DNA from: a virus | Lineage: Duplodnaviria; Heunggongvirae; Uroviricota; Caudoviricetes | Direction: 5' to 3' (one strand) | IMG/VR virus record: IMGVR_UViG_2778261692_000010 | DNA: 3,514 nucleotides | Shown: positions 85-3,514 of the stretch, in pieces | Layout: each line of letters begins with the position of its first letter | Position numbering within the stretch: position 1 is the stretch's first letter | Notes under the pieces: model-generated | The model's input: the letters and a program-made list of their open reading frames with translations, nothing else | The model's database searches: none | What the model was told of the DNA's origin: nothing | Program-made: the position numbers and the translations under genes

Positions 85-276
85 ATGTTCGCGCTGGTAC
101 TTTTTGTTTGCTACCTGGATGGCGGTTGTGAAGATATTGTTGTGGATGTCTACAACACGGAACAGCAGTGTCTTTATTCTATGAGCGATCAACGGATCCG
201 CCATGGCGGTTGTTTTCCGATTGAGGATTTTATAGATGGTTTCTGGCGACCAGCACAGGAGTATGGTGATTTTTAA
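85..276 (+). CDS. yebW: Small uncharacterized protein, YebW-like (63 aa)
   Basis: ORF track gives 1..276, but the 63-aa product from the ATG at 85 (MFALVLFVCYLDGGCEDIVV...QEYGDF) matches my recollection of E. coli YebW. GGGGA at 76..80 sits 4 nt upstream of the ATG. TAA stop at 274..276. Synteny with pphA immediately downstream on the opposite strand. The start could instead be the ATG at 1; not resolvable from sequence alone. Confidence 0.6.
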   Translation: MFALVLFVCYLDGGCEDIVVDVYNTEQQCLYSMSDQRIRHGGCFPIEDFIDGFWRPAQEYGDF

Positions 277-933
277 TTATTGCAATTGCACAAGAGTCAG
301 TTCGCCCCCAAAGACAGCACCGGTATCAATATAATGCAGGTTGCCAATATCCACGCGATGTCGCAACGGTGTATGACCAAACCAGAAATGATCAGCACCT
401 GTAATTCCCTGCCCTTTTTGGCGTTCACCTAATCGCGAGCGGCTCCACAAGACCTGATGCAAATCAACGTCCTTTTGCCATTCATAAACATCATCTGGAT
501 AATCGGCATGAGCAATAACATGTTTGCCGGTACGACTGTGTACTTCAAGAATAAAGGGCAAATGCTGACATTTTTCCAGCGCCGTTTTCGCTTGTTTCTG
601 TTGATTATCTGCCAGCGCAATAAACCAGTCGCCGCCATTCATCAACCACAAAGACATCTGCTGGGATGCCAGCGCATCCATCGCCATCTGTTCATGATTG
701 CCTCTTACCGCACAAACCCAATGTTGTTCCAGTAACTGCAGACAACGTAAACTTTGCGGCCCACGATCGATAACGTCTCCTACTGAGATAAGTAAATCTC
801 GCCACGGATCAAAACGACAATGCCATAATTTGCGGCGCAACTGCTCAAGACAACCGTGTATATCGCCAGAAAGCCAGATATGTCGCCATTGATGACCCGC
901 AATTCTCTGATAAACGGGCGCAGGCTGTTTCAT
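277..933 (-). CDS. pphA: Serine/threonine protein phosphatase 1 (PPP-family metallophosphoesterase, lambda-phosphatase-like)
   Basis: 218-aa product starting MKQPAPVYQRIAGHQW... carries the metallophosphatase signature motifs GDIHG (aa 23-27), GDVIDRG (aa 52-58) and GNHE (aa 78-81). The ORF track begins one codon earlier at 934..936, which is TTG on the minus strand; the ATG at 931..933 is the likelier start, with GGAGG 9 nt upstream. Stop (TAA, as tta at 277..279) abuts the yebW stop. Matches my recollection of E. coli PphA/PrpA. Confidence 0.9.
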   Translation of the reverse strand: MKQPAPVYQRIAGHQWRHIWLSGDIHGCLEQLRRKLWHCRFDPWRDLLISVGDVIDRGPQSLRCLQLLEQHWVCAVRGNHEQMAMDALASQQMSLWLMNGGDWFIALADNQQKQAKTALEKCQHLPFILEVHSRTGKHVIAHADYPDDVYEWQKDVDLHQVLWSRSRLGERQKGQGITGADHFWFGHTPLRHRVDIGNLHYIDTGAVFGGELTLVQLQ

Positions 934-1067
934 CAATATTTTCCTCCCGCGCTAAAGATCACATAATCTTAACAAGAATGTTAAAAAACGCTGGACTCAG
1001 ACAGTAGAGTGTGTGTTATGGTTGACTATAAAGTCAGCGAAGGAAATGCTTCTGGCTTTTAACAGAT

Positions 1068-1100
1068 AAAAAGAGACCGAACACGATTCCTGTTTTCGTC
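1068..1100 (-). ncRNA. sdsR: Truncated 3'-terminal fragment of sRNA SdsR/RyeB (terminator hairpin region); likely prophage attachment core
   Basis: Plus strand AAAAAGAGACCGAACACGATTCCTGTTTTCGTC is the reverse complement of a U-tract plus hairpin. It matches my recalled E. coli SdsR 3' end (RC AAAAAGAGACCGAATACGATTCCTGTATTCGGTC) with 2 substitutions and a 1-nt gap or third substitution near its end. It lies about 135 bp beyond the pphA start, where sdsR is expected. Similarity ends at about 1100; the rest of the sRNA is not in the window. Comparison sequence is from memory, not a search. Confidence 0.5.
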
Positions 1101-1397
1101 AACAAACAACAAAATCTTTTAGAATTAATGTGTTAAATAAATTTATGCTCATCTTTTAATCTCTAACACGTACTATTACATATTAATACATTCAATTAGT
1201 TACCATTTTTTTCGAGTTTTTTAGAGAAATTTTCGGGAATATTTCAGGTCAATCCATGCATACACAAGCAATTCCTGTATTGAATAATTCCGTAGCAATT
1301 ATGTAAAATCATCTCCGGCTGATTTTCATTCAAACTCGCGCTATCGAACGTCCATCAGCCAGCCGTGGCACGTTCTTGCATACGACGTGCTACGGTT

Positions 1398-1952
1398 TCA
1401 TTTATCTCCGACTGGAAACTTCTTATACAAAGTCGATACGCCAACATCATAAATGATCGCCACCTTCTGGCGAGGAACTCCTGATGCAATTAGTCGCCCG
1501 GCCTGCGCCCATTGTTCTGGTGAAAGTTTGGGACGGCGACCGCCAATTCGTCCCTGTGCGCGAGCAGCTTCCAGTCCAGCTTTTGTTCGTTCAACAATCA
1601 GTTCACGCTCCATTTCAGCCAGGGCACCCATGACATGAAAAAAGAAACGGCCCATTGGGGTGCTGGTATCAATAGCATCCGTCAGGCTGCGAAAATTAAC
1701 GCCACGTTCGCGCAACTCCTCAACCAGAATGACCAGATGCCGCATACTACGCCCCAGCCGATCCAGCTTCCAGACAACCAGAGTGTCACCTGCCGATAAT
1801 GTCCTGAGCAGTTTTTTCAGTCCCGGCCTTTCGGACTTTGTACCGCTTATCTTGTCTTCAAAAATCAGCTCGCATCCTGCACAGTTCAACGCATTACGTT
1901 GTAGATCGGTATTCTGGTCATTTGTTGATACGCGTACATAGCCAATAAGCAT
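1398..1952 (-). CDS. pin: Site-specific DNA invertase, serine recombinase (Pin/Gin/Cin/Hin family)
   Basis: 184-aa product MLIGYVRVSTNDQNTDLQRNAL... has the catalytic serine in YVRVSTNDQ, a DRLGR motif and a C-terminal helix-turn-helix; near-identical in my recollection to e14 Pin and Mu Gin. Start chosen at the ATG at 1950..1952 (minus strand), which has AGGGAGA (1959..1965) 6 nt upstream. The ORF track's upstream extension to 1988 (MASFLLLSGRST) is probably not translated. Stop TGA at 1398..1400. Confidence 0.9.
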   Translation of the reverse strand: MLIGYVRVSTNDQNTDLQRNALNCAGCELIFEDKISGTKSERPGLKKLLRTLSAGDTLVVWKLDRLGRSMRHLVILVEELRERGVNFRSLTDAIDTSTPMGRFFFHVMGALAEMERELIVERTKAGLEAARAQGRIGGRRPKLSPEQWAQAGRLIASGVPRQKVAIIYDVGVSTLYKKFPVGDK

Positions 1953-1978
1953 GGTAGATCTCCCTGACAAAAGCAGGA

Positions 1979-2500
1979 ATGATGCCATTTGCTCGTTATT
2001 TCTGCATTTTCATAAACGTTGGTTTGGGAGAAGGCTCTGCATTACCTGTTGGTGTCCCTGTTCCGTGGCCTTCAGCCACACCGCCAACAGGCTGGCTGAA
2101 ATGCAACGGAGCAGCTTTTTCTGCTGAAGAATACCCGGAACTGGCAAAGGCTTACCCGACAAATAAATTGCCAGATTTACGTGGTGAGTTTATTCGTGGC
2201 TGGGATGACGGGCGTGGTATTGATGCTGGACGTGCTTTATTGAGCCTTCAGGCTGGGATGCTGGAAAAACACCGCCATATTGTTGTTGCCAATGATGGTT
2301 ACGACACAAAAGATGAATGGGAACTGGCTACGATTTTCAAAAAGACATACACACAAGGACGGGGACTTGATGCCACAAATACAGGAGGGAGTCTGATCCC
2401 ATCACCGACACTTCATTCACGAGGGAGTATCGGTAATACTGGCGGGAATGAAACCCGTCCACGAAATATTGCATTTAATTTTATCGTGAGGGCTGCATAA
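1979..2500 (+). CDS. Tail fibre protein, C-terminal variable (receptor-binding) cassette; promoterless fragment read away from the invertase
   Basis: Product contains ...ALPVGVPVPWPSATPPTGWLKCNGAAFSAEEYPELAKAYPTNKLPDLRGEFIRGWDDGRGIDAGR..., which I recognise as typical of Mu S / lambda Stf / e14 StfE C-terminal regions. There is no N-terminal shaft domain. An in-frame stop lies at 1955..1957, 24 nt upstream of the ATG, and the first ~18 codons span the crossover site, so the ATG at 1979 is unlikely to be a real start. Stop TAA at 2498..2500. Confidence 0.8.
   Translation: MMPFARYFCIFINVGLGEGSALPVGVPVPWPSATPPTGWLKCNGAAFSAEEYPELAKAYPTNKLPDLRGEFIRGWDDGRGIDAGRALLSLQAGMLEKHRHIVVANDGYDTKDEWELATIFKKTYTQGRGLDATNTGGSLIPSPTLHSRGSIGNTGGNETRPRNIAFNFIVRAA
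2007..2032. other. 26-bp crossover site for the Pin-family invertase (hix/gix/pix-like), one end of an invertible segment
   Basis: TTTTCATAAACG TT GGTTTGGGAGAA has imperfect dyad symmetry: two 12-bp half-sites (TTTTCATAAACG and, by reverse complement, TTCTCCCAAACC) around a central dinucleotide at 2019..2020. Its reverse complement matches about 20/26 positions of hixL as I recall it (TTCTTGAAAACCAAGGTTTTTGATAA). It lies 55 bp from the pin start codon and inside the start of the tail-fibre cassette ORF, as expected for these switches. Confidence 0.7.
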
Positions 2501-3102
2501 TGGATAACGCCGTATTAAATAGCGAGCTTATTGCCACGAAGGCGGGGAATATTACCGTCTATAACTATGATGGTAAAACTCGGGAATATATTTCCACTTC
2601 AAATGAATATCTTGCCATTGGTGTCGGTATCCCTGCATATTCCTGTTTAGATGCCCCTGGCACACATAAGGCGGGTTATGCTATCTGCCGTTCGATGGAT
2701 TTAAATTCATGGGAATATGTGCCAGACCATCGCGGTGAAATCGTCTATAACACCGAAACGGGAGATGCCAAAGAAATCACAGCACCGGGTGATTACCCCG
2801 AAAATACAACCACTATCGCCCCATTAACGCCATACGATAAATGGGATGGTGAGAAATGGGTGACCGATACTGAGGCACAGCATAGCGCCGCAGTAGACGC
2901 GGTAGAAGCACAGCGTCAGTCACTGATTGATACTGCAATGGCTTCCATTAGTCTGATTCAGCTGAAATTACAGGCCGGGCGGAAACTGACGCAGGCAGAA
3001 ACAACCCGGCTTAACGCTGTGCTGGATTACATTGACGCGGTGACGGCAACAGATACCAGCACCGCGCCGGATGTCATCTGGCCTGAACTGCCGGAGGCGT
3101 AG
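2500..3102 (+). CDS. tfa: Tail fibre assembly protein (Tfa/U family chaperone)
   Basis: 200-aa product with Tfa-like N-terminus (NITVYNYDG...) and the characteristic C-terminal motif DTSTAPDVIWPELPEA. Start ATG overlaps the upstream stop (TAATG at 2498..2502), indicating translational coupling; GAGGG at 2488..2492 lies 7 nt upstream. Stop TAG at 3100..3102. Confidence 0.85.
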   Translation: MDNAVLNSELIATKAGNITVYNYDGKTREYISTSNEYLAIGVGIPAYSCLDAPGTHKAGYAICRSMDLNSWEYVPDHRGEIVYNTETGDAKEITAPGDYPENTTTIAPLTPYDKWDGEKWVTDTEAQHSAAVDAVEAQRQSLIDTAMASISLIQLKLQAGRKLTQAETTRLNAVLDYIDAVTATDTSTAPDVIWPELPEA

Positions 3103-3514
3103 GCCATTCAATATCTGGCGCACTGGAAGTATCGACCAGCTCCAGTGCGTCCAGATAATCCAGCCACAGATTATATTGCGCCAGTTCCTCACCTTTCAGA
3201 CGACCAATAGCCGCTTTACCAGGCCATTGTTTACTGTTCATATAATCGTTGGCCTGATTAATCAGTTGCTGCTTTTCCAGTTCGGCTGCAGCAATCTGTT
3301 CCTCAGGTGTTGGTGGTGGAATTTCAGACCATGCAGGAAAACCATTTTCTCCAGCGATACGGATTTTTCCTTCCGGCGGTAATCCGGAAAACTCAATATA
3401 CACCTGCTCATCAACTTCAACAGCATCATCTGGCCATGAGTCAGCTTGAGTGTAATCCTCTTTCATTTCCAGTGGATAGAAAGAGTTTGTAGTCGCGGAA
3501 TATATGTAATTCAT
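3074..3514 (-). CDS. tfa: Tail fibre assembly protein (Tfa/U family), second copy, convergent; 5' end at the window edge
   Basis: 146-aa product ends in the Tfa motif DTSSAPDIEWPTPPAVQAR. The N-terminus MNYIYSATTNSFYP resembles the conserved IY..TN.F start of Tfa proteins, so the ATG at 3512..3514 may be the true start, but the frame could continue past the window. Stop TGA at 3074..3076. Overlaps the other tfa by 29 bp. Confidence 0.8.
   Translation of the reverse strand: MNYIYSATTNSFYPLEMKEDYTQADSWPDDAVEVDEQVYIEFSGLPPEGKIRIAGENGFPAWSEIPPPTPEEQIAAAELEKQQLINQANDYMNSKQWPGKAAIGRLKGEELAQYNLWLDYLDALELVDTSSAPDIEWPTPPAVQAR

Follow-up and report, generated by a model that had tools for sequence, protein, structure and literature searches.

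A probable attR junction of a temperate phage in the terminator of the small RNA gene sdsR, next to pphA of Escherichia coli

Introduction

The stretch of DNA analysed here, 3514 bases long and referred to as the window, begins in chromosomal genes of Escherichia coli and ends in tail-fibre genes of a phage, which raises the question of where exactly the host DNA stops and by which route the phage DNA came to lie there. About 2.4 kb of the window belongs to the element; the integrase, attL and the second copy of the core lie outside it. The initial annotation, made from the letters alone, suggested a chromosome-prophage junction inside the ryeA/sdsR (ryeB) small-RNA locus beside pphA and interpreted it as an attR-type end.

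The same locus is an attachment site in Salmonella. Passages in three later papers (PMC7380047, PMC3333887, PMC3603311) credit Balbontin et al. 2008 with the finding that phages and islands attach at the last ~23 bp of ryeB, and the initial annotation, which had named this site, is borne out by them at second hand. According to the relevant passages, lysogeny alters the levels of RyeA and RyeB in Salmonella (PMC7380047, PMC3333887), and in lysogens carrying PhiW104 (DT104) at the ryeB site the expression of ryeA is lowered and that of ryeB is raised (PMC7380047). Islands named after the 'RyeB' site also occur in a systematic island catalogue (PMC10111431). No explicit description of the E. coli case was found in the literature searched.

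Results

Layout of the window

The features of the window are listed in Table 1. Many IMG/VR provirus contigs begin exactly at window base 1, inside the open yebW frame; as a result, proviruses called automatically for this element contain about 1.09 kb of host sequence, comprising yebW, pphA and the ryeA promoter.

Table 1. Coordinates of the features of the 3514-base window.
Feature	Position	Strand	Basis and remarks
yebW	85-276		Last 192 nt annotated in RefSeq; ORF open from base 1 (91 aa)
pphA, serine/threonine phosphatase, host gene beside the junction	277-933	-	ORF; Metallophos domain; pphA in identical RefSeq loci
Non-coding stretch, 464 bp	934-1397		Between pphA and pin
ryeA (sraC) -10 hexamer TATGGT	1017-1022	+	Mutagenic oligo RyeA-p3 (PMC6610125); alignment with the SraC_RyeA 5' end starts at 1064
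Host-derived last 26 nt of sdsR/ryeB: U-tract, 3' arm of the terminator stem, loop	1068-1093	-	Identical to K-12; alleles G1073, C1082
Putative core-type half-site CGAACAC (host B)	1078-1084		Analogy with lambda Int
Interval holding the strand exchange, ACGATTCCTGT	1083-1093		Only uninterrupted attB/attP identity; four-way comparison
Putative core-type half-site GTTTTCG (phage C')	1092-1098		Analogy with lambda Int
Phage P' arm, AT-rich, non-coding	1094-1397		From core to pin stop codon; absent from K-12; GC 0.22-0.38
Candidate arm-type Int-binding block, TTCGAGTTTTTTAGAGAAATTTTCGGGAATATTTCAGG	1211-1250	+	Repeats common to the P and P' arms of pPE4
Conserved two-hairpin module, non-coding	1317-1395		GGCTGA...TCAGCC 1317-1360; CCGTGGCACGT...ACGTGCTACGG 1363-1395; ends at pin stop codon
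pin, serine DNA invertase, first phage gene inside the junction	1398-1952	-	Resolvase (E = 8.7e-52) and HTH_7; pinE in related genomes
Tail-collar fibre tip	1979-2500	+	Domain search
Pin-proximal crossover site of the invertible tail-fibre segment, AACGTTGGTTTGGGAGAAG	2015-2033	+	One copy in the window
Tail-fibre assembly gene	2500-3102	+	Convergent with the next
Tail-fibre assembly gene	3074-3514	-	Convergent with the previous

From 1953 to 3514 the window holds a tail-fibre segment of the Mu G / e14 P type that is invertible by Pin; its alternative fibre tip and the first assembly gene point away from the second assembly gene, and the overlap between the assembly genes measures 29 bp. An inverted-repeat search revealed no second Pin crossover site within the window, its partner lying beyond the window end; the O111 prophage described below has two inverted copies ~1.85 kb apart within its tail-fibre genes (L003 45550-45568 and 47399-47417). 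The Din-family segments (Mu Gin/G, P1 Cin/C, e14 Pin/P) are built in the same way, with pin followed by inverted alternative cassettes of fibre tip and assembly genes and by a crossover site; this likeness gives context only and is outside the mechanism of the junction.

The boundary between host and phage DNA

An alignment of positions 930-1300 with the chromosome of the prophage-free strain K-12 MG1655 showed identity from pphA through position 1093, a T in place of the K-12 A at 1094, TTCG common to both sequences at 1095-1098 and unrelated sequences afterwards; K-12 has no counterpart of 1100-1400 at this site. The prophage boundary is 1093/1094, with host DNA up to 1093 and phage DNA from 1094 on, and the breakpoint does fall inside the ryeA/sdsR locus, as the initial annotation had proposed. 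The distance from the start of pphA, given there as about 135 bp, agrees with the 134 nt counted between the start codon (931-933, minus strand) and the SdsR 3' end at 1068, and the abrupt loss of similarity, followed by an AT-rich tract (GC content 0.22-0.32 over 1100-1300) and then by pin and tail-fibre genes, was reproduced by alignment and domain searches. The resemblance to the SdsR 3' end, which had been drawn over 1068-1100, has to be shortened, as 1068-1093 is host-derived and identical to K-12, whereas everything from 1094 onward comes from the phage.

The homologous bases in K-12 belong to the 3' end of SdsR_RyeB (Rfam score 114 bits, minus strand) and, on the plus strand, to the 5' end of SraC_RyeA (175 bits). 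Within the window, SraC_RyeA (RF00101) scored 25.4 bits, below the gathering score of 37, with a true match over the first ~40 model positions only; SdsR_RyeB (RF00111) gave no match even at E <= 1 in a search where the best match alone was kept among overlapping families of one clan, and of the full-length RNA of ~100 nt just 26 nt remain here. The Rfam comparison, another point raised at the outset, shows a truncated locus at the pphA end. The segment 1068-1093 is a displaced 3' fragment of sdsR left at attR, and not a degenerate small-RNA gene.

Folding of the terminator region indicates what has happened to the hairpin. The SdsR terminator folds with -15.8 kcal/mol in K-12 and in the version rebuilt by the phage alike, and the remnant at the junction folds with -5.3 kcal/mol (z = +0.56), no better than shuffled sequence, so the remnant is neither a small-RNA gene nor a terminator. 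The initial annotation, which assumed that substitutions in both hairpin arms weaken the stem, was right about the effect, the stem being destroyed (-5.3 vs -15.8 kcal/mol), but not about the cause; the stem is lost because one of its arms is now the phage's own core-type arm, and not through mutations accumulated in the remnant. C1082, taken for a substitution, is the native allele of K-12 and E. coli and accounts for a G-U wobble pair in the terminator of SdsR, while T1094 and the missing G, also counted as substitutions, are part of the core arm brought by the phage.

The promoter of ryeA is located on the host side. The oligo RyeA-p3 replaces TATGGT in TGTGTGT-TATGGT-TGACTATAAAG, corresponding to window positions 1010-1033 (PMC6610125); judging from this -10 position, the start site would be at about 1029, and the ryeA promoter together with the first ~64 nt of RyeA (about 1029-1093) would remain on the pphA side.

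Junctions in complete genomes and in the free phage

A megablast search with positions 900-1400 matched 900-1098 in all 5426 complete E. coli genomes, and the match extended beyond 1098 in 228 of them only (4.2%). The interval pphA-sdsR-yebY was uninterrupted in 5189 of the 5426 genomes and split in 237. A search for the attL-type junction (int end, P arm and sdsR, with at least 80% of the query covered) found it in exactly 228 genomes, a number equal to that of the attR-type junctions. The closest complete E. coli genomes to the whole window showed 95-97% identity over 78-90% of its length, and none was at 100%; the IMG/VR loci compared did not include an exact copy of it either.

Two lysogens related to the window illustrate the complete arrangement. 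E. coli O111:H2 12A contains a 42-kb prophage between yebY and pphA, whose yebY end carries the excisionase and tyrosine integrase genes and whose pphA end carries pin; its int-side junction reads ...ACAATTAAAAAAAGACCGAATACGATTCCTGTATTCGGTCCAGGG..., and SdsR is intact there (Rfam score 118 bits). Over 900-1400, the identity between RM8082 and the window is 100%, and the far end of the RM8082 prophage, 42 kb off, carries xis, int, the P arm and an intact sdsR beside yebY. The other part of sdsR and an integrase had been expected at the distal end of the prophage, and this is where both were found in the two lysogens, ~42 kb away. Thus, a second copy of the core adjoins the integrase in these lysogens, and the window itself is colinear with the empty site up to a short core, which is followed by foreign DNA. 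The sdsR gene at the attL end is complete in related lysogens, its last ~26 nt being supplied by the phage, with A and T instead of the host G1073 and C1082.

The free form of the phage was also found. In PP818812 (L004 1100-1545), int is followed by an uninterrupted attP ...ACAATTAAAAAAAGACCGAATACGATTCCTGTTTTCGTCAACAAACAAG..., in which the P arm known from attL is joined to the P' arm of the window; the IMG/VR contig L024 has an uninterrupted attP next to an intact int, ~98% identical, so that P arm, core and P' arm are continuous in both. Domain searches with the integrase of PP818812 (phage pPE4) revealed PF00589 Phage_integrase (E = 1.1e-16), PF22022 Phage_int_M and PF09003 Arm-DNA-bind_1 (E = 6.5e-07), and the O111 prophage has a near-identical integrase.

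PP818812 was deposited as Actinobacillus phage vB_Apl-pPE4, with Actinobacillus pleuropneumoniae as the host, and the core of its attP is the enterobacterial sdsR terminator; the stated host looks doubtful, or else the phage came from an enterobacterial contaminant or lysogen.

Taken together, these data indicate with high confidence (probability about 0.93) that the region 937-1397 is the attR of a temperate phage, ~42 kb long in related lysogens, that integrates by a lambda-type tyrosine recombinase into the sdsR terminator between pphA and yebY.

It is unlikely that the junction in the source strain is the end of a decayed, non-excisable remnant, reduced to the pin and tail-fibre end, and not of a complete temperate phage. 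Such a remnant would fit the fact that nothing but this end is visible and that no complete genome is exact over the whole window, and related prophages do contain pseudogenes (pin is truncated and genes are frameshifted in RM8082, and O111 has an internal stop). The equal counts of attR-type and attL-type junctions argue against decay, as do the full 42-kb element with int and xis in both lysogens examined and the window itself, where pin and the core region are intact and the junction has exactly the sequence seen in a full-length lysogen.

Integration of a temperate phage is also preferred to the rather improbable scenario that the element came with a pre-existing lysogenic region of another strain, by transduction or homologous recombination, which would make the junction silent on integrase activity in the recipient. 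The near-identical host flanks among lysogens, the occurrence of P' arms of different sequence types with the same junction and the mosaic internal modules of the prophages are compatible with such a transfer. It bears on the history of the strain only, however, since the relationship between attP, attB, attL and attR shows the Int-mediated origin of the junction, and the diversity of the P' arms (79-99% identity among 34 variants), combined with an invariant core, argues for repeated independent integrations. Finally, the possibility that the resemblance of 1068-1100 to sdsR is fortuitous or a conserved intergenic feature, and that the AT-rich tract is native to E. coli, is practically negligible, for although the match is short (26 nt) and there is nothing else, the flank agrees with K-12 at 100% as far as 1093 and is unrelated to it beyond 1098, the 5189 genomes mentioned above have no interruption, and a free phage genome carries the AT-rich tract in continuity with its integrase.

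The target, the sdsR terminator, is conserved in all of at least 120 species-representative genomes, nearly all of them from Enterobacterales, and varies only at two polymorphic positions. Among the matches listed for these genomes (at least 120 loci), there were no lysogens of other species and no Salmonella locus, and the sites were of the attB type only.

Strand exchange and core sites

The position of strand exchange was approached by a four-way comparison of attB (K-12), attP (pPE4 and L024), attL (O111 and RM8082) and attR (the window). Within a stretch of 31 bp, attB and attP differ at three positions, namely 1073 (G in the host, A in the phage), 1082 (C and T, respectively) and 1094 (A and T, respectively), and share 11 bp of uninterrupted identity. 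At these three positions the window has G, C and T, and the attL sites have A, T and A; among 39 IMG/VR junction contigs, position 1082 is C in 34 of the 34 flanked by E. coli DNA and T in all three of the attP type. This segregation of alleles in the window, the attL sites and the IMG/VR contigs places the exchange within ACGATTCCTGT, an interval that rests on alleles from other lysogens and phages.

By analogy with lambda Int, the overlap region would be the 7-nt terminator loop GATTCCT (1085-1091), with Int cutting on both sides of it, and the arms of the terminator stem would serve as inverted core-type sites with the consensus CGAAnAC in B, B', C and C'. All four half-sites fit this consensus: CGAACAC in the host, with CGAATAC on the other strand, and CGAATAC in the phage, with CGAAAAC on the other strand. 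A role of the stem arms as core-type sites would explain why the phage arm keeps the host-stem-like TTCG at 1095-1098. The copy of the core at the far end is expected to read GACCGAATACGATTCCTGT, followed by the sdsR body, and the predicted sequences are ...AAAAAAAGACCGAATACGATTCCTGTTTTCGTCAAC... for attP and ...AAAAAGAGACCGAACACGATTCCTGTATTCGGTCC... for the attB restored by excision.

A second core-like copy, ATTCCTGTATT, was noticed at 1271-1281. It matches 1086-1096 at 10 of 11 positions and is identical to the attB stretch; approximately 0.5 matches of this type are expected by chance in a region of that size (an estimate), the copy is not conserved in pPE4, and it was treated as a chance occurrence.

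Several IMG/VR contigs show the core in other surroundings. In L025 and L042 (junction at 1005), the same core and P' arm adjoin another host flank, TATAGATAAAAAGA, with allele C, and this flank probably belongs to another enterobacterial species. In L027 and L031 (junction at 2732), the T allele lies beside a diverged or truncated C-terminus of an integrase (54-68% identity), suggesting that this core serves either a second lineage of integrases or an element that has been rearranged.

The P' arm and the two-hairpin module

The P' arm is contiguous with int and the P arm in the free phage PP818812. A search for ORFs of at least 30 aa in 1094-1397 gave none except a spurious 44-aa ORF (1355-1489, minus strand) overlapping pin. 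The motif ATTTCGGGGA is present twice in the P arm of attP, and related copies were found at window positions 1229-1250; the block 1196-1250 is almost invariant among the 34 P' arm variants. Perhaps the segment 1211-1250 holds arm-type Int sites, as the shared repeats point to it as a candidate. No exact match to the IHF consensus WATCAANNNNTTR was found anywhere in the window, and ATTCAATTAGTTA at 1189-1201 is one mismatch away from it.

The end of the P' arm is occupied by a conserved module of two hairpins, the minus strand of which folds with z = -3.8. Its homologues are found downstream of the tail-fibre genes of HK97, phi80, HK633, 2H10 and many Stx phages, whatever gene precedes (e.g., L006 1501-1609, L008 1501-1607, L005 2501-2603 and L007 2098-2186). 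Compensatory changes were found in 5 of the 20 predicted pairs, in both stems; a comparison of the strands gave 311 vs 306 of 319 cells paired and 10 vs 5 G-U pairs. A simple terminator scan of the module revealed nothing on either strand. The partial match to CssrB (RF02799), a Shigella small RNA, reached 31.8 bits vs a gathering score of 76, aligned the 3' hairpin only (1364-1420, minus strand) and skipped 129 positions of the 180-nt model.

The module is annotated as a part of attP in HK633 and stands directly after sib in HK97. The geometry is lambda-like, with int, att and then ~230-300 bp, and a role as a sib/tI retroregulator was considered, but HK97 has its own annotated sib immediately upstream, and this assignment was rejected. 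The module is probably a terminator or a boundary element at the late-gene end of lambdoid genomes.

In one more IMG/VR contig (L015), unrelated DNA separates the first 47 nt of the hairpin module from the rest, which follows farther on; this suggests an insertion inside the P' arm.

Discussion

The junction uses the same attachment site and the same mechanism as those published for Salmonella enterica, and in this respect it is already known and ordinary. As in the ryeA/ryeB hot spot of that species, the site, located within ryeA, consists of the last ~23 bp of ryeB, the element lies between the side of the pphA homologue and the body of sdsR, and the 5' part of ryeA is replaced by lysogeny; the differences are that the host here is E. 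coli and that its attB has the alleles G and C.

The system also resembles that of lambda. The integrase of pPE4 has the catalytic, central and lambda-type arm-binding domains, attL has int and xis beside it and attR the tail-fibre end, repeated motifs occur in the AT-rich arms, and the core consists of imperfect inverted half-sites around a short identical segment. Unlike lambda, which integrates at an intergenic gal-bio site, the phage described here targets the terminator hairpin of a small RNA, and its core and arm sequences are unrelated to those of lambda; the functions of the sites in the present case are deduced by comparison.

Phages integrated in the 3' ends of tRNA and tmRNA genes carry a replacement 3' end, according to a review (Williams 2002) as cited in a passage of PMC3603311. 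The same principle is seen at sdsR, where the RNA gene is rebuilt at attL by a phage copy of its 3' end, a displaced 3' fragment is left at attR, and the crossover has at its centre a stem-loop with a dyad symmetry suited to a tyrosine recombinase. In contrast to tRNA and tmRNA genes, the target here is an Hfq-dependent small RNA with its terminator inside the antisense gene ryeA, and for this reason one of the two overlapping genes is not restored.

Consequences of lysogeny for three host genes can be predicted from this arrangement. A rebuilt, working sdsR gene would be present at the far end. At attR, phage DNA would be fused to a stranded piece of ryeA made up of the promoter and the first ~64 nt of RyeA, and the part of ryeA complementary to sdsR would lie downstream of int, at a distance of 42 kb, so that the native RyeA antisense 'antitoxin' is predicted to be no longer produced from the ryeA promoter. 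Most pphA transcription in K-12 reads through from the sigma-S promoter of sdsR (PMC6610125), and in lysogens, where 42 kb would separate pphA from this promoter, the read-through link is predicted to be broken.

The terminator of sdsR appears here as a compact, highly conserved attachment site, and the main value of the present analysis is for annotation, as it gives the exact prophage boundary (1093/1094) and identifies the sdsR-like piece as a displaced 3' fragment. As a tentative and rather doubtful extension, lysogeny by this phage family, found in ~4% of E. coli strains, might rewire the SdsR/RyeA pair of small RNAs, which is similar to a toxin-antitoxin pair, together with pphA, a stationary-phase change undescribed in E. 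coli. SdsR would then gain a terminator made by the phage, with an A-U pair in place of the G-U wobble and a longer U-tract; RyeA would lose its sigma-70 promoter and may be driven by read-through from int; and pphA would lose the sigma-S-dependent read-through promoter and may receive phage transcription from pin and the late genes across the unfolded remnant of the terminator. Such an uncoupling, if it has a phenotype, would carry the Salmonella report over to E. coli without a new principle, and the lysogens would be natural ryeA-promoter and pphA-regulation mutants.
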